Assembly: GCA_964635635.1 (NCBI GenBank)
Contig: CAZWPE010000002.1
Span: 22,312-86,311 of the forward strand
DNA length: 64,000 nucleotides
Origin: an uncultured Myxococcaceae bacterium
GTDB lineage: Bacteria > Myxococcota > UBA727 > JABDBI01
Direction of reading: 5' to 3'
Under the pieces are notes generated by a model. That model saw nothing but the letters and a program-made list of their open reading frames with translations. It was not told where the DNA came from and ran no database searches. Position 1 is the first letter of the stretch. Every line of letters begins with the position of its first letter. The position numbers and the translations under genes were made by a program. Shown here in pieces: positions 35,647 through 44,936 of the stretch.

Positions 35647-36657
35647 ATGCACCTAGACCCAAGACTCCCTGAAACTCTTGTAGATCTTCATATCCATGTT
35701 GGGGGGGCTGTAGCCCCTCATGTTTTATTCGGAATCGCCCATGAGCAAGGGTTTAAACTTCCGGTTAAAAACTACTGGGAGTTTGTCGATTTAGTTACTG
35801 CTAAGCAGAGCTCCATTAAAAGTTTAGATGATTATTTGAAAATCATGCATCAGTGGACCGAGAAGATTCAAAGTTCCCCGGCAGCAATCGAGCGTTCTGT
35901 TTATGAGATTATTTGCAAAGAGTATCGCTCGTCTCGGGTTGAACATATTGAGCTCAGATTTAACCCCATGAAACGTAATCTGGGGGGTGAACGAGACTTA
36001 GATCATATCATCCACGCTGCTCTGCGCGGAATGGACCGCGCAGTTCTAGAATATGGTGTCAAAGCTTGCTTGTTATTCTGTTTGGCGCGTGAATTTGACC
36101 ATTCAACCAATGAAATCATTGTTGAAAAGGCAATTAAATATGCTCACAGAGGTGTGTTGGGCATAGATTTGGCGGGTCCGGAAAGTCACAATCTTGAGCT
36201 TTCACTTCAAGACGTTCCTCGTTATGAAAAGCTTTTTGAAAGAGCTCGGGCAGCAGGCCTAAAAACAACACTGCATACAGGTGAAACGACCCATACTGGC
36301 GCTGCAGGGGTTAAAGCGGCGCTGAAGTATCTAAAGCCTAATCGAATTGGTCACGGAATCCAGGCTGCGTACGATGAAGAGGCCCTTAAAATGCTGGCGG
36401 ATTCAGGAGTGGTTTTGGAGATCTGCCCAACCTCCAATCTTTATACGCGTGCAGTCAAAGACCTGGCAGAATTAAAGCAAGTCTTAAAGGCCTTCCAATC
36501 TCACAAAATTCCGTTTACGATCAACACAGACGGGCCTTATCTGCTGGATACGGATATGGCCAAAGAGTCTATCTTGCTTTTGGATAATGGGGTTTTAACT
36601 CAGCAAGAACTGGCTCAGTGTTTTGAAATATCCAAGAGAGCGTCTTTTATACAATGA
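35647..36657 (+). CDS. Adenosine/adenine deaminase-family amidohydrolase
   Basis: N-terminal metal-binding DLHIHVGGA (cf. ELHxHLDG). TLHTGE and TINTDGP(Y) motifs. 336 aa. Confidence 0.6.
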   Translation: MHLDPRLPETLVDLHIHVGGAVAPHVLFGIAHEQGFKLPVKNYWEFVDLVTAKQSSIKSLDDYLKIMHQWTEKIQSSPAAIERSVYEIICKEYRSSRVEHIELRFNPMKRNLGGERDLDHIIHAALRGMDRAVLEYGVKACLLFCLAREFDHSTNEIIVEKAIKYAHRGVLGIDLAGPESHNLELSLQDVPRYEKLFERARAAGLKTTLHTGETTHTGAAGVKAALKYLKPNRIGHGIQAAYDEEALKMLADSGVVLEICPTSNLYTRAVKDLAELKQVLKAFQSHKIPFTINTDGPYLLDTDMAKESILLLDNGVLTQQELAQCFEISKRASFIQ

Positions 36658-37430
36658 GTTCAGAAGCTATTACATTGTTGTCGGCCAGCGAGATTGAAAA
36701 AATGCGGAAGGCTGGTCGTCTTGCAGCTGAGCTGCTCACGCATTTAGGCTCTATGGTTCGTCCGGGTATTTCAACTCAAGCATTGAATGATGAAGCAGAG
36801 CGCTGGACCAGGGAACATGGCGCTCGAAGTGCTCCTTTGAACTATGCTCCTGGTGGTTGCACACCATTCCCTAGGTCTATTTGTACCAGTGTCAATGAAG
36901 TTGTGTGTCATGGTATCCCAAACTCTAGGCAGGTTTTGAAAGAGGGCGATATTATTAATATCGATGTGACGCCAATTTTAGATGGCTATCACGGTGACAC
37001 GTCCAAGACATTTTTCGTAGGGACACCCTCAAAAGCTGCCCGCCAATTAGTGGAAGTGACTGAAGAGTGCCTAAAGCTTGGGATTGCAGAAGTAGGCCCT
37101 GGCAAGCGTCTCGGGGACATTGGTGCTGCAATCCAGGAATACGCTGAGTCATTTGGATATGGCGTGGTGCGTGATTTCGTTGGGCACGGCATTGGCAAAA
37201 AGTTTCATACAGCCCCCCAAATCTACCATTATGGAACTCGCGGTAAGGGTGACCGAATGATTCCGGGGATGTGCTTTACCATCGAGCCCATGATTAACCA
37301 GGGAACTTGGAAAACCAAATTGCTGGATGATGACTGGACTGCGGTCACCGGAGACCGCAAGCTTTCAGCTCAATTTGAGCACACAGTGGTGGTAACTGAA
37401 ACTGGGGTTGAAATCCTTACTTTAAGATGA
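36654..37430 (+). CDS. map: Methionine aminopeptidase, type I
   Basis: Metal ligands in the GDIINIDVT ... HGIG ... FTIEPM ... EHTVVVT context. 258 aa. Confidence 0.85.
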   Translation: MSSEAITLLSASEIEKMRKAGRLAAELLTHLGSMVRPGISTQALNDEAERWTREHGARSAPLNYAPGGCTPFPRSICTSVNEVVCHGIPNSRQVLKEGDIINIDVTPILDGYHGDTSKTFFVGTPSKAARQLVEVTEECLKLGIAEVGPGKRLGDIGAAIQEYAESFGYGVVRDFVGHGIGKKFHTAPQIYHYGTRGKGDRMIPGMCFTIEPMINQGTWKTKLLDDDWTAVTGDRKLSAQFEHTVVVTETGVEILTLR

Positions 37431-37435
37431 TTGTC

Positions 37436-37465
37436 ACCCCGGCCTCCGAGCCGGGGTTCAGTCTT
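37436..37465 (+). terminator. Rho-independent terminator-like hairpin downstream of map
   Basis: CCCCGGC-ctccga-GCCGGGG stem-loop followed by a T-rich stretch. A second hairpin TCCCGGG-tcaag-CCCGGGA at 37482-37500 overlaps the stop of the ancestral PpiD-like gene tail on the opposite strand. Confidence 0.5.
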
Positions 37466-37550
37466 TATGAGATATTTCTGGATCCCGGGTCAAGCCCGGG
37501 ATGACAAAACAGTCTGTTTATCGTCTGACTCTGTTGTTCCATCAACCAAC

Positions 37551-37615
37551 TTACCCATTTGTTCTGCTACCAAATCTTTGCGCAGCTGGCTTTCGAACTG
37601 AGCTTCGCTTAAGTG
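37551..37615. repeat. Left copy of a 65-bp imperfect direct repeat (ancestral 3' end of the SurA_N/PpiD-like gene)
   Basis: Matches 38641-38705. The last 32 nt (CTGGCTTTCGAACTGAGCTTCGCTTAAGTG) are identical. Minus-strand translation gives ..HLSEAQFESQLRKDLVAEQMGKLVDGTTESDDKQTVLSSRA*. Confidence 0.7.
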
Positions 37616-37624
37616 TGTTTAATA

Positions 37625-38317
37625 TCAATGGTACTGAATTTTAATGCTGAAATTATCTCTAAATCTTTTTAGGTATAAAATTCCTAAATCCCCGAACATG
37701 AGTCCCAGTTTATCGGTGGAGTTTATCTGTAAATCTGAATCTATTTCATTTTGGATTGTGGTTGGATATCCACCGATTTTACTGTGGTTACGATGGTTTT
37801 TTTCAAGATATTTTTCTAGTTTCTTAAATTCTTCATAGGCTTGATCGGAATCGTCTAGATCGCAATATTCATCTTCGTAAGCCTCCATTGGTACGTCTTC
37901 GGCTAATTCCCAACTGATTTGATAACCTTCTTCAAAGGTACACTCTTTAGGTATAGAGACAGGAACAAGCCCATCTAAAGATTTATAAGCCCTGACAACA
38001 TAAGGGTAACTATCGATGAAGTTTGGGTTGATGAATATGGTGATAATTTCTATGTCTTTAAGGTTGTCAGGGACATAAGGAGCCTCTGTTAGATTAATTT
38101 GGCATAAAAAAAACAGAGGTTTAATGTCAGGAGGTGCCTGTTTCCCTGTAAAAAAAGCTTCTCTATTTCTATCCTGTTGGGTAACAAAATCGCATTCCGG
38201 CCATGATTCATTAGGTTTTGCAACTAATTTTAAGCCAAAATTAGAAGCAAAATCAGATATAGTTCCTTTTGGCTTGTGAATGTTAATCAAAGAACATTCT
38301 TTTTTGATGATATTCAT
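37625..38317 (-). CDS. Hypothetical protein, AT-rich, acidic C-terminal half; possible DUF1963/YwqG-like
   Basis: 230 aa. KIGGYPTTIQNE motif is reminiscent of DUF1963. Codon usage is visibly AT-richer than neighbours. Lies between the two direct repeats. Confidence 0.4.
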   Translation of the reverse strand: MNIIKKECSLINIHKPKGTISDFASNFGLKLVAKPNESWPECDFVTQQDRNREAFFTGKQAPPDIKPLFFLCQINLTEAPYVPDNLKDIEIITIFINPNFIDSYPYVVRAYKSLDGLVPVSIPKECTFEEGYQISWELAEDVPMEAYEDEYCDLDDSDQAYEEFKKLEKYLEKNHRNHSKIGGYPTTIQNEIDSDLQINSTDKLGLMFGDLGILYLKRFRDNFSIKIQYH

Positions 38318-38526
38318 AGAGGTGTTCTACTTGTTTTTATAGAACTTTACAAGTTGTTGTCCTGGTTCAAGATATTTAAAACTTTAAGCCTCTCAGGGCT
38401 TGGTGAGGCCTAATGTAATTATGGATGTATTGCCAGCGACCAAGCTAGCGTCTCAAAGCGCCTATTTCATAGGCTAAGTTGTAGACCCAGTGGGTATTTT
38501 TGCTGGAAGCATGGGAGCAGAGATCC

Positions 38527-39132
38527 TTACCCTTGGGGTAATGCAGAACTCTTGATGGTGGCGCCTTTTTTCAAAAACTCAACATAGTTCTGGAAAAACT
38601 TGGCGCGTGGCTCATCGCTTTGAAGGGTTCCGTCAATCAGCTTGCCCATTTGTTCAGCTACTAGATCTTTGCGTAACTGGCTTTCGAACTGAGCTTCGCT
38701 TAAGTGATAGTTTGAATAAATTGCACGTTGATAAGCTGCACGATCAATTTTCTTTTCACCCCCAAATAAGTTGGTTCGAATAAAGTCGGCAAGCTCGCGG
38801 TCTGAAACCCTGAGACCCTCGCTCTCTGCGAGCTGAGCCAAGAGCGTTTTCGAAATTAGGCGCTCCAGAACAGCCTTTTTAAGCATTTCTTGTACAGGGC
38901 CTTCCGGATTAAAATCGGGTGTGTTGCTTTGGATCATGCGGATCTGCTGTGTGTAGGCCATCTGAAGTTCAGGGTAAGTGATAACATGTCCATTGACAGT
39001 CGCAGCATAGGGAAGTTCGGAGCCAGTTTGTCCAACCCATGGGCCAAAATTGATGGCAAACACAAAGATAATGACCCCGAACAGGAGTACAATCAACCAA
39101 GAGTTTGAGTTTTTTCGCATGAGATCGAGCAT
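38527..39132 (-). CDS. SurA N-terminal-domain periplasmic chaperone (PpiD N-terminal-like), 201 aa
   Basis: Signal-anchor helix then YAATVNGHVITYPELQMAYTQQ..., as in the PpiD/SurA N-domain. Its 3'-terminal 38 codons differ from the ancestral tail preserved at 37489-37560. Confidence 0.55.
   Translation of the reverse strand: MLDLMRKNSNSWLIVLLFGVIIFVFAINFGPWVGQTGSELPYAATVNGHVITYPELQMAYTQQIRMIQSNTPDFNPEGPVQEMLKKAVLERLISKTLLAQLAESEGLRVSDRELADFIRTNLFGGEKKIDRAAYQRAIYSNYHLSEAQFESQLRKDLVAEQMGKLIDGTLQSDEPRAKFFQNYVEFLKKGATIKSSALPQG
38641..38705. repeat. Right copy of the 65-bp direct repeat (inside the current PpiD-like gene)
   Basis: See left copy at 37551-37615. Confidence 0.7.
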
Positions 39133-39188
39133 TTTTTCTTCCTTTTTCGGTTTAAAACTCTCTATAACTGCGCTAGTACAAAATTACT

Positions 39189-40220
39189 ATGGCGCGTTTT
39201 CTTCCTAACTGGTTTTCGAGCGATATTGCAATTGATTTAGGTACCTCCAATACCTTGGTGTTTCTTCAGGGGCGTGGAATCGTTGTCAATGAGCCCAGCG
39301 TGGTCGCTGTTGATCAGCGTATTGTCGGAAAAAATCGTATCGTTGCTGTTGGCCGCGAAGCAAAAGATATGCTTGGCCGAACACCTGGGATGATATCTGC
39401 GATTAGACCTATTCAAAAGGGTGTAATCTCGGATTTTGATGCCACCGTAGAAATGCTTAGAGCATTTATAGAGCGTGCGCTTGGGCGGATGTCCTTTTTG
39501 AAGCCCAGGGTCGTAATCGCTGTCCCGGTGGGTATTACAGAAGTTGAGAAACGTGCGGTTAAAGAGTCTGCCGAGTCTGCAAATGCTGGAGAGGTATTTT
39601 TGATTGAAGAGCCTATGGCTGCCGCGATTGGTGCAGGAATGCCTATTACCGAGCCGTCTGGTAACATGATTGTTGATATTGGCGGTGGAACAACAGAAGT
39701 TGCTGTTATCTCCCTTGGGGGAATCGTGTTTAGTCACTCCACCCGTATTGGTGGTGACAATTTAGATGACGCGATCGCTGCCCATATTAAGAAACATTAT
39801 TCTTTGCTGGTGGGTGAAAGAACAGTAGAGCAGATTAAGATTCGTTTGGGCTCTGCCTTTCCCGATGAGGACTTGGGGACCATGGAAGTAAAGGGCAGAG
39901 ATATTATTGCCGGAGTCCCTAGAACGATTGAAGTCGGTGGTGCTGAAATCCGAGAAGCGATGGCTGAGCCTATCTCCGCAATTGTTGAGGCCGTGCGGGT
40001 TAGCCTTGAAAGAACCCCCCCTGAGCTTGCATCTGACATTGTAGATAGGGGTATTATCCTTTCTGGAGGGGGCGCTTTGTTAAGAAACTTGGATACATTG
40101 TTGCAGCGTGAAACAGGTGTCCCTGTGTGTCTTGCTTCAGACCCCTTGTGTGGGACTGTTCTTGGTGCTGGTAAGGTTTTGGAAGAACTCGATCGATTGA
40201 AACAGGTTTTGACGATATAA
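39189..40220 (+). CDS. mreB: Rod shape-determining protein MreB
   Basis: Actin-like ATPase motifs: IAIDLGTSNT, DIGGGTTEVAV, ILSGGGALL. 343 aa. Confidence 0.9.
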   Translation: MARFLPNWFSSDIAIDLGTSNTLVFLQGRGIVVNEPSVVAVDQRIVGKNRIVAVGREAKDMLGRTPGMISAIRPIQKGVISDFDATVEMLRAFIERALGRMSFLKPRVVIAVPVGITEVEKRAVKESAESANAGEVFLIEEPMAAAIGAGMPITEPSGNMIVDIGGGTTEVAVISLGGIVFSHSTRIGGDNLDDAIAAHIKKHYSLLVGERTVEQIKIRLGSAFPDEDLGTMEVKGRDIIAGVPRTIEVGGAEIREAMAEPISAIVEAVRVSLERTPPELASDIVDRGIILSGGGALLRNLDTLLQRETGVPVCLASDPLCGTVLGAGKVLEELDRLKQVLTI

Positions 40221-40223
40221 GAG

Positions 40224-41102
40224 GTGCGGGTGGCAGGTAAGAGATTTTCTCAAATTAAAACCCTTGTGGGAGTGGTGATGTTGTTGCTGCTCCCTTTTGT
40301 GTTTTTAAAAGTTCAAAAAAAAGCCCCTGAATTATCGGATGCGGTTGGGGGTACATTTTTAGATTTATCATCCATCCTACAAGAGGGAGTTTTGTGGGCT
40401 TTTGGTGGGGTTTCTGATGCCCTTGAGCGCCGATTTGTTCGTCAAAAATCAGAGGATGAAATCTTTGAACTTCGAGCCGAGCGTACCAAAATGAGAACGC
40501 TCGAGATTATGTTAACCGAATCTGAACGGGAGAACGCTCGTTTAAAAGAACTACTGGCATTTTCTCCAACCATTAATGCTCCTCGAGTGATTGGCGCACT
40601 GGTAATTGGTCAAACAGGGATTCCGCTCACAAGAGTAATCCAAATTGATCGAGGTTCTAAAGCAGGTGTCAAAAAAGGAGATGCCGTTGTCAATACTGCG
40701 GGTGCGGTAGGCCAAGTCTTACTGACAGGCAAGTATAATAGTGAAGTCCTCCTATTGCCAGATGCATCTAGTGCGATTGATGTCGTTGTGGAACGTTCCA
40801 GAATAAAGGGTATCATGCGGGGGCTCAAGGTTCATAACTTTGATAGACTCGGCGACGTTCGAGTTGGGGATATTCTTGTCACTTCAGGGGTAGGAGCGCG
40901 ATTCCCTGAGGGAATGCCGATTGGAAAAATTAGCCGTGTCAAAAGTCATGAGCAAGGTTTGTACACGGAAGCTGAGGTGGAGCCTTTTGTCAACTTTAAC
41001 AAATTGGAAGAAGTGCTTGTCTTGACTCAAAACTCAAAAACAAGTTTGTGGCGTCGAAAAGATATGGTCTCTCAGTTTCTTCAAGTGAGTGTTGCAAAAT
41101 GA
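40224..41102 (+). CDS. mreC: Rod shape-determining protein MreC
   Basis: N-terminal TM, coiled coil, then a beta-rich C-domain. Position after mreB. 292 aa. Confidence 0.75.
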   Translation: MRVAGKRFSQIKTLVGVVMLLLLPFVFLKVQKKAPELSDAVGGTFLDLSSILQEGVLWAFGGVSDALERRFVRQKSEDEIFELRAERTKMRTLEIMLTESERENARLKELLAFSPTINAPRVIGALVIGQTGIPLTRVIQIDRGSKAGVKKGDAVVNTAGAVGQVLLTGKYNSEVLLLPDASSAIDVVVERSRIKGIMRGLKVHNFDRLGDVRVGDILVTSGVGARFPEGMPIGKISRVKSHEQGLYTEAEVEPFVNFNKLEEVLVLTQNSKTSLWRRKDMVSQFLQVSVAK

Positions 41103-41554
41103 TACCCTTCTTTTTGTTGATGCTGTTCACTCTTTTTTATCAAGCTGTGTTGAATGGTATGTCTGTTCTTACTCATGCGTACTCTAGTTTTTTTCTGGCA
41201 GCTCCAGTTGTCTTGGTGTTGGTGATATTCTGCATGAATATTTTATCAGGCTTGTTCTTGCTGCCATTTTTAGGAATGTTGTTGGATGCAATGACAGGTG
41301 GGGTTGCTGGCCAGCATTTGGTATGGATGGTTATTTTTGGATTTAGCGGTATGATGCTGAGCTCTCTGCTTGGAAAACCGCATTCGCCGCTGATCCTTTC
41401 GTTTCTGTTAGGTTCTTCTCTTATCTATAGGCTCTGGCTGTCTCAAATGGGTAATTGGGGGATTTCAAATTTGTTGTTGGGTCCGTTTGCGGATGCTCTG
41501 GTCGGTATGTTGATCTTTTATTGTTTACCAACTCGATTGATTCGAATGGATTGA
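41099..41554 (+). CDS. mreD: Rod shape-determining protein MreD
   Basis: Small polytopic membrane protein. ATGA overlap with mreC. Start trimmed to MIPFF. Confidence 0.6.
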   Translation: MIPFFLLMLFTLFYQAVLNGMSVLTHAYSSFFLAAPVVLVLVIFCMNILSGLFLLPFLGMLLDAMTGGVAGQHLVWMVIFGFSGMMLSSLLGKPHSPLILSFLLGSSLIYRLWLSQMGNWGISNLLLGPFADALVGMLIFYCLPTRLIRMD

Positions 41555-41560
41555 TTTTTT

Positions 41561-43681
41561 ATGAATTTTTCAGAAAAAAGATTCGCGATATTTAGCTTTG
41601 CGCCGATGGTGGTCTTCGCTATTTTTACGCTGAGACTTTTTTATCTTCAGGTTATCCGAGGAGATTATTATCTTACTCGCAGTGAAAGCAATTTCATTCA
41701 AGAAAGACCCATTAGTCATACGCGAGGTTTAATCTTAGATCAGGCGGGTGTTCCGCTGGCAGATAACCGACCTTCGCATGACCTATACATTACGCTTTCT
41801 CTTTTTCCTGAAGCAAGTGCCACCTTAAAGAAAATGGGTTTAGCTCTTGGGCTTAAACGAATTCAGATTAAAGATGCAGAGAAAAAATTCACCCAAGCAC
41901 AGGGAGAATTCGCCTTGTGGAACTTGTCTGGTTCGAAATGTCGACAGTTCTCATCCTGGTTGCAGAATCAACGGATCCCTGGTGTATATGAGTCGAATTG
42001 TGTTGTTTATGTAGATCCAGAGCATTTTCCCTCAAGACAAGTTTCTGTCAGAGAGTTGAGTAAACTTTTAGGGATTCCAGAAGAAGAAATGGCTTTGTAC
42101 TGGGCATCTGCAGAAAAGAAATCTCAGGGCTTGGGGCAATATAAGCCCGTGTTGCTCTTGAGCGACCTGGACTATGATGCTTATGCACGGTTAGAGTCTG
42201 CGATTTCTTTAGGACTGATGCCGGGGTTAATAATTTTTGATTCAGTTAAGAGACGCTACATCAATGGTCCAATGGCTGCCCACGCGCTTGGGTATCTGAA
42301 TGAAATCTCTGCAAACGAATTGATTAAGAAACCTGACTATCGCCAAGGACAACGCATTGGCCGCCGCGGGATTGAGTTGATGTATGAAAAAACTCTGCGC
42401 GGTGAAGATGGATATGAACGCACCGTGGTTGATGCCAAAGGGCGCAGATTCTCTGAGGCCATTGAAAAAGATTGGTTGGGTGATGACCGCATAGAGCCAT
42501 CAGTCCCTGGAAATAATCTCATCTTATCGATGGACATTGAGTTACAGAAAGCTGCAGAAAAGGCGTTTTCTGGTAAAGCTGGGTCTGTTGTTGCGCTTGA
42601 GGCTGGAACTGGATTTGTTTTAGCTATGGCTAGTTTCCCGGCATATGATCCGAACGAAATTATCGGCCGTAATAACCGGAAAGTATTTCAGCGCTTAACG
42701 ACGGATCCATTGAAGCCTTGGCTCAATAAAGCGATTCAAGAACATTATGCTCCTGGTAGTACTTTTAAGGCCATTACAGCGGTTGCCGGGTTTGAACATG
42801 GCATGCTCAAGCAGACAGATCATAAAACGTGCCGGGGAACTTTCTATTTGGGGAGAAATAGCTGGCGATGTTTCAAGCGAGAAGGACATGGAACCATCGA
42901 TGTCGTAGATGCTCTTAAAACATCTTGTGACGTCTTTTTTTATAGCCTTGGTTATGAACTAGGTCCTGAAAAATTGGCAGAAACTGCACGCCTTCTGGGG
43001 TTTGGTCGAAAAACAGGTGTTGAGCTCGACATGGAAATTCCTGGCATTATGCCGGACAAAGCCTACTACCAAAAACGTCTTGGATATTACTCTCCTGGCT
43101 TGGTGGTGAACAGTGCGATTGGTCAAGGTGATGTAACGACAACTCCGCTACAGCTTGCAGTTGCTTATGATGCTTTGGTCAATGGAGGAACACTTTATAA
43201 GCCACAACTTGTGCGTGAAATACGAGATGTTCACAATAATTTGATTCAAAAAAAAGAGCCTATCGTGGCATCTCACCTGAAAGAGAGCGAGGAAAGTTTG
43301 CAATTAGTCAAAGAAGGATTAGCACATATTTTAGAGCCAGGTGGAACTGCTAATAGTGTTTTATATCGAGGTGATTTGCCTGAGCTTTCAAAATGGCTTC
43401 GGGAGTCGGGCATTAAAATTGGTGGTAAAACAGGGACAGCTCAGGTAGTTCGGCTCTCAAAATCTGTGAAACATATTGATCCTAATGCGGTGAGCTATGC
43501 CCACCGTGATCATGCTTGGTTCGTGGGTTTTGCCCCAGCAGATAAACCAGAGATAGTGGTTGTGGCCATGACAGAACATGGAGGTTTTGGAGGGACTGCT
43601 TCAGCGCCTGTTGTGCTTGAGGTAATCAAAACTTGGTATGAGAAGGTGAGGGGAAAAGGTCGCTATGCGCAGCAAAAATAG
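41561..43681 (+). CDS. mrdA: Penicillin-binding protein 2 (elongasome transpeptidase)
   Basis: SxxK (GSTFKAIT), SxN-like (KTSCD) and KTGT (GGKTGTAQV) motifs. N-terminal TM. 706 aa. Confidence 0.85.
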   Translation: MNFSEKRFAIFSFAPMVVFAIFTLRLFYLQVIRGDYYLTRSESNFIQERPISHTRGLILDQAGVPLADNRPSHDLYITLSLFPEASATLKKMGLALGLKRIQIKDAEKKFTQAQGEFALWNLSGSKCRQFSSWLQNQRIPGVYESNCVVYVDPEHFPSRQVSVRELSKLLGIPEEEMALYWASAEKKSQGLGQYKPVLLLSDLDYDAYARLESAISLGLMPGLIIFDSVKRRYINGPMAAHALGYLNEISANELIKKPDYRQGQRIGRRGIELMYEKTLRGEDGYERTVVDAKGRRFSEAIEKDWLGDDRIEPSVPGNNLILSMDIELQKAAEKAFSGKAGSVVALEAGTGFVLAMASFPAYDPNEIIGRNNRKVFQRLTTDPLKPWLNKAIQEHYAPGSTFKAITAVAGFEHGMLKQTDHKTCRGTFYLGRNSWRCFKREGHGTIDVVDALKTSCDVFFYSLGYELGPEKLAETARLLGFGRKTGVELDMEIPGIMPDKAYYQKRLGYYSPGLVVNSAIGQGDVTTTPLQLAVAYDALVNGGTLYKPQLVREIRDVHNNLIQKKEPIVASHLKESEESLQLVKEGLAHILEPGGTANSVLYRGDLPELSKWLRESGIKIGGKTGTAQVVRLSKSVKHIDPNAVSYAHRDHAWFVGFAPADKPEIVVVAMTEHGGFGGTASAPVVLEVIKTWYEKVRGKGRYAQQK

Positions 43682-44936
43682 CTCATTTAAGGTTCGATTT
43701 CCTATCTCACTGGTTTCTCTTGCGTTAATTCTAACTCTGGTTGGTATTGTGAATATAGCTTCAGCGGCTAAAGCCACTCAGCCAAACTTGTTCATCTACC
43801 AATTTGTCTGGTTGGGGATCGCTGCTTTAATGGCAGCTGTAATTTGTTTCTTTCAAACAAGAACTCTAGGACTTTTAGCCTACCCGTTTTATGTCGGTGT
43901 TGTTGGACTGCTGCTTGCTGTGCTTGTAGTGGGTGTTGTTGTTAAAGGCTCTCAACGCTGGATTGATATTGGCATTATGAGGCTTCAACCCTCAGAGCTA
44001 GCTAAAATAGCAGTCGTATTGGCCACGGCAAAATTCTGCACAGATTTTGAAGTGTATGGTGGGTATCGACTCAGGGATCTTATAAGGCCATTTAATATTT
44101 CTAGACCCTTGGCAGTGTTGGCAGTGTGTCTCTATGTTCTTAAAAAATTTCCAGCTTACATTTGGCCGGCGAGTATTGGGATCGTGCTTGGACTGGTTTG
44201 GGTTGCACTGTCTTTAAAGCAAATGCGCAAGGAAGGTTTTCATTTTTACCAGATTGTTTCGTTGGGAGATGTTGTTTTGGTGCCATTTCTCTTAATTCTG
44301 GTGGAGCCAGATTTAGGAACGTCGATGATTGTTTTAGCCATTCCGACAACGATGTTGCTATTTGCAGGTATGCGAGCATCATCGCTTTTTATAGCTGCCT
44401 TATTTGCGGTTGGTATTGCATTGGTTGGTTGGAATTTTGTCCTGATGGACTACCAAAAGCAGCGGGTTCATACTTTTATTAATCCTGAAGCTGATATCAA
44501 GGGCAAGGGATATCACGCAATGCAGTCTATGATTGCTGTAGGTTCTGGGCAGTTTTTAGGTAAAGGCTTTGGGGAAGGAACGCAGACACAGCTTTCATTT
44601 CTACCTGAGAATCATACAGACTTTGTTTTTTCTGTTCTGGCAGAGGAATGGGGTTTCCTTGGAGCAGTTCTGGTGTTGGCTTTGTTAGCAGCTCTAGTGC
44701 TTTCCATGATTCAAATTGCAGCGAAGGCTCAAGATCGTTTTGCAAGTTTACTCGCCGTGGGAGCGGCCTCGGTAGTTTTTTGGCATATGACGGTTAATGT
44801 GGGTATGGTGATTGGCCTCTTGCCGGTAGTAGGCGTACCATTGCCATTTGTGAGCTATGGGGGCGCTTCAATGCTGATTCAGGTTGCTGCTTTAGCGATT
44901 TGTATGAATGTTTCAATTTGGCGTAAGGTGCGGTGA
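43665..44936 (+). CDS. rodA: SEDS-family peptidoglycan glycosyltransferase RodA
   Basis: FtsW/RodA/SpoVE topology. Follows mrdA with a 17-nt overlap. 423 aa. Confidence 0.8.
   Translation: MRSKNSSFKVRFPISLVSLALILTLVGIVNIASAAKATQPNLFIYQFVWLGIAALMAAVICFFQTRTLGLLAYPFYVGVVGLLLAVLVVGVVVKGSQRWIDIGIMRLQPSELAKIAVVLATAKFCTDFEVYGGYRLRDLIRPFNISRPLAVLAVCLYVLKKFPAYIWPASIGIVLGLVWVALSLKQMRKEGFHFYQIVSLGDVVLVPFLLILVEPDLGTSMIVLAIPTTMLLFAGMRASSLFIAALFAVGIALVGWNFVLMDYQKQRVHTFINPEADIKGKGYHAMQSMIAVGSGQFLGKGFGEGTQTQLSFLPENHTDFVFSVLAEEWGFLGAVLVLALLAALVLSMIQIAAKAQDRFASLLAVGAASVVFWHMTVNVGMVIGLLPVVGVPLPFVSYGGASMLIQVAALAICMNVSIWRKVR

Follow-up and report, generated by a model that had tools for sequence, protein, structure and literature searches.

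An AT-rich islet with a DUF1963/YwqG gene, probably a recombinational insertion that joined two alleles of the 3′ part of a SurA_N-domain gene in an uncultured Myxococcota

Prophage e14 and phage 21 integrate in icd of Escherichia coli, where they supply the gene with a spare 3′ end and leave a displaced icd fragment behind. Cis-mobilizable elements (CIMEs) are integrase-less remnants of integrative and conjugative or integrative and mobilizable elements (ICEs/IMEs) that are still flanked by attachment (att) sites, an example being found at the 3′ end of fda in Streptococcus thermophilus. A third route, homology-facilitated illegitimate recombination, brings foreign DNA into naturally transformable bacteria beside a homologous anchor. 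Here we describe a locus that resembles each of these in part, in a 64,000-nt stretch of DNA from an uncultured Myxococcaceae bacterium (assembly GCA_964635635.1, contig CAZWPE010000002.1, positions 22,312 to 86,311), the whole of which is referred to below as the window. The object of interest is an AT-rich islet of about 1.1 kb that carries a gene of the DUF1963/YwqG family (the cargo) and lies between map, encoding a methionine aminopeptidase, and a convergent gene encoding a SurA_N-domain protein.

The islet is probably a recombinational insertion that joined two alleles of the 3′ part of the SurA_N-domain gene. An 80-nt segment of this gene at 37536–37615 is repeated directly at 38627–38706, on the other side of the cargo, with 71 of 80 nucleotides identical (89%; spacing 1091; BLAST E 3e-24 in a search within the window). 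Insertion is also supported by the GC content of the cargo (35% against 45%), by the lack of close relatives of the cargo and by a related contig that does not contain the islet. The initial annotation had proposed an integrative element that targets the 3′ end of the gene and supplies it with a replacement terminus; this idea agrees with the form of the repeat, its identical core and the synonymous nature of the differences between the copies, but the labels then given to the two gene tails and the boundaries of the insert do not agree with the comparisons reported below.

As in the case of e14 and phage 21 at icd, a protein-coding gene has received the insertion within its 3′ part, the direct repeat (of about 100–200 nt) is the 3′ segment of that gene with copies differing mainly at synonymous sites, and the gene itself is intact with a dead 3′ fragment at the far end. 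Unlike at icd, the insert is only about 1 kb long and without an integrase, the fragment that would have been displaced is truncated and remodelled, and the target overlaps the convergent essential gene map, the end of which has also changed. The locus shares with CIMEs a small islet between direct repeats at the 3′ end of a gene, one that has cargo but lacks genes for recombination or transfer; its repeat, however, is a diverged gene segment and not a short exact att core, and no cognate ICE/IME or integrase was found for the site. Because the defining recombinase is absent, the islet is at most a decayed member of the e14/icd or CIME type. It is an insertion scar of known pattern and opens no long-standing question. 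What the locus illustrates is how foreign DNA can settle in a dense block of essential genes (map, the SurA_N chaperone and mreBCD) of an uncultured Myxococcota, the duplication of the gene end apparently having averted damage, and how a leftover fragment may be reused as stop codon and putative terminators for the neighbouring gene.

The only close relative available is a 960-nt JGI contig (L006) with a homolog of the SurA_N protein (P0001, 95% protein identity). The features discussed here, in the order in which they occur in the window, are as follows.

36654–37430, plus strand: map, type I methionine aminopeptidase (Pfam Peptidase_M24, E 2.6e-55).
37410–37420, no strand assigned: left 11-nt repeat, GAAATCCTTAC, the last bases shared with map of L006.
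37421–37515, no strand assigned: 95-nt spacer with the current map stop, stem-loop 1, stem-loop 2 and a short tail (...KQTVLSSRA, stop); unique in the window.
37516–37615, minus strand: apparent dead remnant of another SurA_N allele (codons about 143–176), with the strong repeat at 37536–37615 and the core at 37586–37615.
37625–38317, minus strand: cargo gene, 230-amino-acid DUF1963/YwqG (TYPP) protein, 34.9% GC and 30% GC at third codon positions.
38388–38474, minus strand: possible C-terminal relic of an rve-type (IS481-like) transposase or integrase (...WQYIHNYIRPHQALRG; ...WQYIHNYIRPHQALRGL); its reading frame is broken by a stop and truncated on its 5′ side.
38520–38555, plus strand: right 11-nt repeat, GAGATCCTTAC (38520–38530), then the frame EILTLGVMQNS and a stop, as at the end of L006 map; this frame is antisense to the SurA_N tail.
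38527–39132, minus strand: working SurA_N-domain gene, 201 amino acids, 'PpiD-N-like' (SurA_N_3, E 1.8e-36), with the right repeat at 38627–38706 and the core at 38677–38706.

The repeat had first been described as 37551–37615 against 38641–38705 with the last 32 nt identical. It is real and longer than that, the right-hand coordinates of the segment should read 38642–38706, and the stretch of perfect identity measures 30 nt (37586–37615 = 38677–38706); the minus-strand translations of both copies were correct. HLSEAQFESQ, the product of this 30-nt core, is the motif best conserved in the SurA_N protein. The edge of the repeat is sharp at the gene-5′ side (37615/38706), and past the core identity drops to 39 of 48 positions and then to a weaker similarity that fades out at about 37516/38607, some 20 nt further toward the 3′ end of the gene. 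The repeated segment extends from the core to 7 nt beyond the SurA_N stop codon, the extent required of a spare 3′ end.

The copies differ at nine positions, every one of them within the first 50 of the 80 nt (chance about 0.01). A Val/Ile exchange is the only replacement among these changes; the other eight are synonymous, while random changes would be expected to give only some 20% synonymous (P = 1.7e-5), and not a single indel separates the copies over 100 nt. With L006 used to polarise the changes, four were placed on the working right copy and three on the left copy (two synonymous and one Val/Ile); the left copy, the right copy and L006 show three different states at two further sites, all of them synonymous. 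Away from the core, identity between the copies is 81%, about the same as the identity of each to L006 (83% and 81%); inside the core they are identical and share five states that differ from L006. The excess of synonymous differences together with the lack of indels implies that the left copy was coding until recently, either in another lineage or in this one. Since the differences are mostly synonymous, the copies look like alleles of two lineages, and the sequence comparison points to their having been joined at the core rather than to a local duplicate. The core would then mark a stretch of shared recent history, most simply a crossover.

These data also bear on a local tandem duplication of the gene 3′ region that enclosed foreign DNA and was followed by decay of the left copy in place, an event which we consider very unlikely. 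Direct repeats only 1.1 kb apart would fit such an event, and so would a left copy that is partly degraded, given its palindrome insertion and unrelated distal part. Neutral decay, however, does not produce this pattern, in which the changes assigned to the non-coding left copy are mostly synonymous as well and no indels have accumulated, and outside the core the copies have diverged like those of separate species. A second copy of the repeat motif was not found in any other locus retrieved, and there is thus no evidence of a recurrent attachment site.

L006 matches the window from 39146 to 38520 at 84% and from 37420 to 37080 at 87%, with nothing between. It is about 15% diverged from the window at the nucleotide level (about 85% identity) and is not the same species. 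The contig lacks the islet and the hairpins and has a single copy of the repeat; its map and SurA_N genes converge with a 29-nt overlap (L006 592–620), the last seven codons of map (...EILTLGAMQNS, stop) being antisense to the last codons of the SurA_N gene (...SSALPQG, stop). The extra DNA of the window relative to L006 comprises 1,099 nt (37421–38519) between the 11-nt repeats, the 11-mer GARATCCTTAC being present at both junctions, and includes the present stop of map, both stem-loops, the left repeat copy, the cargo and a further spacer at 38318–38519. The end of map has accordingly changed from EILTLGxMQNS in the L006 type to EILTLR in the window, with its final 10 nt (37421–37430, ...LR, stop) lying in DNA without a counterpart in L006. 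Judged from this alignment, the extra DNA supplies the present stop codon of map and its putative terminator. The altered end of map had not been noticed in the initial annotation, which expected the empty site to show map convergent with a short gene ending in VLSSRA; L006 has a long canonical tail and the 29-nt overlap in its place. The L006-type frame and stop (EILTLGVMQNS) are still intact in the window at 38520–38555, though outside the present map.

Recombination between 37410–37420 and 38520–38530 would yield the exact junction seen in L006, and one could accordingly regard the state of the window as the older one and L006 as having lost the islet by deletion between the 11-nt repeats. 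A 10/11 match between two stretches of about 300 nt is expected about 0.7 times by chance (a rough estimate), and a fortuitous endpoint is therefore possible. We find such a deletion improbable, as the 35% GC content of the cargo and the mostly synonymous differences of the left copy argue that the islet arrived after the divergence of about 15% from L006.

Taken at face value, L006 favours the left copy as the incoming one. A 1,099-nt fragment of a related lineage, consisting of the hairpins, that lineage's SurA_N piece, the DUF1963 gene and part of an insertion sequence, might have entered an L006-like site where map and the SurA_N gene overlap, either by illegitimate or homology-facilitated illegitimate recombination or through a transposase with an 11-nt target duplication. 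The working gene and its tail would in that case be native and the left copy a passenger, and map would have gained its stop and terminator. This history would lead to the same final structure as the crossover described below, and is possible but rather doubtful. It agrees with the end of L006 homology at 37420 and its resumption at 38520 with the 11-mer at both points, with a current SurA_N tail that is typical of the family, with the tight or overlapping convergent ends that are usual beside map in relatives, and with an rve-like relic that breaks off precisely at the right boundary, as the random end of a fragment would. Events of homology-facilitated illegitimate recombination are alike in involving 0.1–2 kb of DNA and in having an illegitimate joint marked by a short microhomology or duplication (here the 11-mer), but normally they duplicate no stretch of about 100 nt of a neighbouring gene, and they would not leave a 30-nt core of perfect identity at the opposite end of the insert. 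It would, moreover, be a coincidence for the insert to hold a piece of the very gene that it adjoins, in the same orientation and about 100 nt from the homologous stretch; a 30/30 core where the rest is about 19% diverged is left unexplained (about 0.002–0.004 by chance, an estimate); no inverted repeats are present at the ends and no transposase was found; and the donor would need a DUF1963 gene already joined to the SurA_N gene at the core, itself the event favoured here.

The favoured reading, an insertion through the core, starts from an element that held the cargo and its own copy of the last approximately 59 codons of the SurA_N gene and would have crossed into the chromosome at the 30-nt core. 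It would have brought the right copy and the canonical tail with it. The other copy (codons approximately 143–176) would have been moved across the insert to a place beside map and become a dead fragment, into which a 23-nt palindrome would have been inserted; other sequence would have taken the place of the distal part of the fragment, giving map a stop codon and two terminator stem-loops. We thus infer a crossover in the core, a resident left copy and a later remodelling of the displaced copy, where the remodelling of the displaced end could date from before or after integration. The remnant of the element would measure about 0.9 kb and hold the DUF1963 gene and at most a recombinase relic of about 90 nt, and it can no longer move on its own. 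A crossover in the core accounts for the span of the repeat from the conserved motif to just past the stop codon, for the perfect identity at the gene-5′ edge that decays toward the 3′ end, and for the presence of a piece of the same gene inside the insert; since the element would have brought its own gene end, the working gene kept a full canonical tail.

The direction of this exchange, with a spare 3′ end coming in and the left copy as the displaced resident, is proposed only tentatively, at somewhat short of an even chance. Several observations weigh against it. L006 has the right-hand arrangement joined straight to map, and the extra DNA at 37421–38519 with its 11-nt duplication contains the left copy. 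The displaced copy is without the canonical tail and requires either extra remodelling or a resident gene that was already truncated. No tyrosine or serine integrase is present in the islet, the rve match is below threshold, and no other genome was found with a second copy, nor any sign of repeated use of the site. Finally, 30 identical nucleotides in alleles that are about 19% diverged call for ascertainment or gene conversion; recombination occurs only where identity exists, and this is the sense in which ascertainment may apply.

L006 does not fix the direction of change, because it is itself about 15% diverged and no outgroup with map and the SurA_N gene adjacent was found; the two are adjacent in the window and L006 only, and in the other relatives the SurA_N gene is followed by rlmN, or map by unrelated genes. 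The junction of map and the SurA_N gene (37420/38520) is also a synteny breakpoint (L001 6001–7887; L019–L024). The DoxX-Ada-map and SurA_N-mreBCD-PBP2 blocks are each kept in relatives and adjoin only in the window and L006, which places the islet exactly at a lineage-specific rearrangement joint. Two further comparisons did not discriminate which of the copies is foreign, i.e. a breakdown of the identity with L006 (92% for the tail, 75% for the variable part, 81% for the core, 84% for the N-terminal part and 87% for map) and the leucine codon usage (TTA+CTA 24% in resident genes). More generally, 'ancestral' and 'replacement' gene ends are not assignable from one genome alone.

The two tails themselves can be compared with the rest of the family. 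Thirteen homologs of the SurA_N protein were collected from Myxococcota metagenome-assembled genomes and metagenomes, with lengths of 187–218 amino acids. The tail of the working gene (...KFFQNYVEFLKKGATIK..., C-terminus ...RAKFFQNYVEFLKKGATIKSSALPQG) follows the family pattern ...F.xNYVxFLKKxAxIK, which is kept in 13/13 homologs down to about 44% identity (alignment A1). The left copy continues into ...TTESDDKQTVLSSRA and a stop (ending ...DKQTVLSSRA), a sequence with no match among the 13 homologs. The left copy had been said to preserve the ancestral gene tail, a label that is wrong in the family sense because this tail is unique to it and the present tail is the one conserved. As to annotation, the 100-nt fragment is a pseudogene piece and not an alternative C-terminus.

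The name PpiD-like, given earlier to the working gene, holds for the N-terminal domain only. The protein consists of a complete SurA_N_3 domain (residues 1–162 of 162) and an N-terminal hydrophobic segment, and nothing more; the PpiD model (626 positions) is matched at positions 1–172 only. Neither the 201-amino-acid protein nor any of the 13 homologs has a parvulin/rotamase domain, full-length PpiD being about 620 amino acids long and the present family about 190–220. For one homolog (P0007), two independent assemblies (L027 4104–4233 and L028 4104–4148) stop 45–130 nt past the SurA_N gene. The DNA 3′ of the P0007-type gene is AT-rich, and the region may be repetitive or variable there too.

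In the 95-nt spacer, stem-loop 1 (37437–37456) and stem-loop 2 (37484–37500) have folding z scores of -3.2 and -3.3 compared with shuffled sequences. Both are terminator-like on the plus strand, and no further copies were found elsewhere in the window. Stem-loop 2 corresponds to a 23-nt palindromic insertion in the gene fragment. When the palindrome is removed, GTTTTGTCCAGAAATAT aligns with GTTTT-TCCAGAACTAT, the FFQNY codons (a 17-mer, post hoc p about 0.01), which suggests that the left fragment may once have run into a canonical tail and was then broken by the palindrome. The 95-nt spacer as a whole was also considered as a decayed native tail and rejected, with global and local alignments against shuffled sequences giving p values of 0.08–0.6. 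At its other end, the left fragment is in the same frame as the DUF1963 open reading frame (ORF), parted from it by two in-frame stops (TAA-TAT-TAA, 37616–37627). SurA_N homology may, with small indels, reach the stop codon of the cargo (a 92-nt gapped BLAST alignment).

The palindrome also raises the question of the assembly, which was checked against independently assembled Logan contigs from SRR16481186. Contig L007 corresponds to 37480–44430 and L026 to 35864–37504, both at 100% identity, and they share only 25 nt of overlap, within the palindromic hairpin. Since L007 carries both repeat copies and the cargo at 100% identity, the structure of the islet is no assembly artefact of the repeat. 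A chimera in which the map side and the islet side were joined at the hairpin without being contiguous in any cell would be consistent with two contigs ending inside it. We nevertheless regard this as highly improbable; palindromes routinely break de Bruijn contigs, the assembly of the window runs through the hairpin, neither contig differs from it, and one of them holds both copies together with the cargo.

The search for mobility genes returned little. The only ORF of the islet is the DUF1963 gene and a working integrase is absent from it, in line with the initial annotation; what had been missed is the weak rve-type match at about 38388–38474. On the minus strand this reads ...AYEIGALRR, a stop and then LGRWQYIHNYIRPHQALRG, and matches rve_3 with an E value of 0.005–0.012 (16–17 bits, under the cut-off of 26.5) and the NCBIfam IS481 model with an E value of 0.009. 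It covers about 30 amino acids (about 90 nt), is cut on its 5′ side at 38519 and abuts the spare tail, and is possibly the relic of a recombinase gene. No inverted repeats were found at the insert ends (37421/38519). The islet as an IS481-family insertion sequence was rejected, as the relic is sub-threshold, inverted repeats are lacking and, although the insert is flanked by the 11-nt repeat, the content is not that of an insertion sequence. A map relic to the left of 38520 was rejected as well, only GAEILTL matching (E 0.15), with marginal DNA alignments and no Peptidase_M24 match. Beyond the weak rve relic, no recombinase or toxin gene was found within approximately 12 kb of the islet, and no tRNA, tmRNA or Rfam RNA family that could act as an att site was found.

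A more far-reaching interpretation makes the islet a live, minimal, non-autonomous cassette, moving as a circle of about 1.1 kb (the DUF1963 gene and about 190 nt of spare SurA_N 3′ end), mobilized in trans by a recombinase encoded elsewhere and entering and leaving at the 30-nt core. We give this little credence. If true, it would be a single-gene mobile cassette outside integrons, able even to repair a truncated target gene.

The low GC content noted earlier for the islet was confirmed, with 34.9% in the cargo ORF and 37.4% over 37616–38626, compared with 44.8% for the whole window. The assignment of its 230-amino-acid product to DUF1963/YwqG was borne out by a match to Pfam DUF1963 (PF09234; E 5e-10, 40.5 bits, cut-off 23), and a family profile matches the YwqG structure PDB 1PV5 over the GGxP/Gln region (E 4e-7). 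The residues K180-I-G182-G183-Y-P ... I188-Q189, i.e. the GGxP motif and the Gln, are invariant in the alignment of the cargo family (A4). The GGxP motif and the conserved Gln define the TYPP superfamily, and a protein-binding or chaperone-like role has been proposed for the DUF1963/YwqG family (Burroughs and Aravind, 2014; PMC4275035). The cargo is thus like YwqG in its Pfam match, its motif and its profile match; it differs from it in being divergent and in lying outside a toxin/immunity array. Its best homolog among 5.8 billion proteins, with an identical copy of the query set aside, is only 38% identical. Compared with its nearest homologs, the cargo has a 21-amino-acid insertion (FVTQQDRNREAFFTGKQAPPDI) and is without the N-terminal VGGFRP motif and two C-terminal segments (WW..HP..P.YC and GTAAGCEDQW); going by these sequence features, it may be a degenerate or specialised member of DUF1963. 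No match for the cargo was obtained in PADLOC (defence systems) or in a single-sequence search of PDB, and no viral relatives of either the cargo or the core were detected among the viral contigs searched.

DUF1963 genes had been said to occur next to polymorphic-toxin and immunity loci. One homolog does so: P0017 (34% identical) adjoins an Imm43/Imm11 gene in a same-strand run of small genes (L029 160–8762) that also holds MORN, DUF4241, DUF7638/7639, PDDEXK_2 and Macro domains, and this neighbourhood looks like an immunity or accessory gene array. Another DUF1963 homolog is a lone gene among housekeeping genes, and the cargo locus itself has neither a toxin partner nor an immunity array, its neighbours being map and the SurA_N gene. 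The cargo is probably a protein-binding accessory or immunity-type protein, an immunity role being only hinted at by the neighbourhood of one homolog.

The genes run in the order map, a 195-nt gap, the 230-amino-acid ORF, a 209-nt gap, the 201-amino-acid ORF, mreB, mreC, mreD and PBP2. Apart from the islet this is a tightly packed block of core-genome genes, whose wider neighbours include an Opp transporter, BamA, RibA, Ada, MreBCD, PBP2, RodA and pyruvate kinase. The 64-kb window as a whole is packed very tightly, most neighbouring genes overlapping or being separated by a few nucleotides, and the gaps of approximately 200 nt on both sides of the DUF1963 gene are conspicuous in the local ORF map. 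Homologs of map share the end ...GVEILT and then differ in short variable tails. The map protein is only 77–83% identical to its nearest Myxococcota-like relatives, and many of the remaining matches listed (approximately 71–77% identity) bear cyanobacterial names (Scytonema, Coleofasciculus, Oscillatoria and others); map may be a cyanobacterial-type methionine aminopeptidase gene gained by transfer, or this may reflect the composition of the database only.

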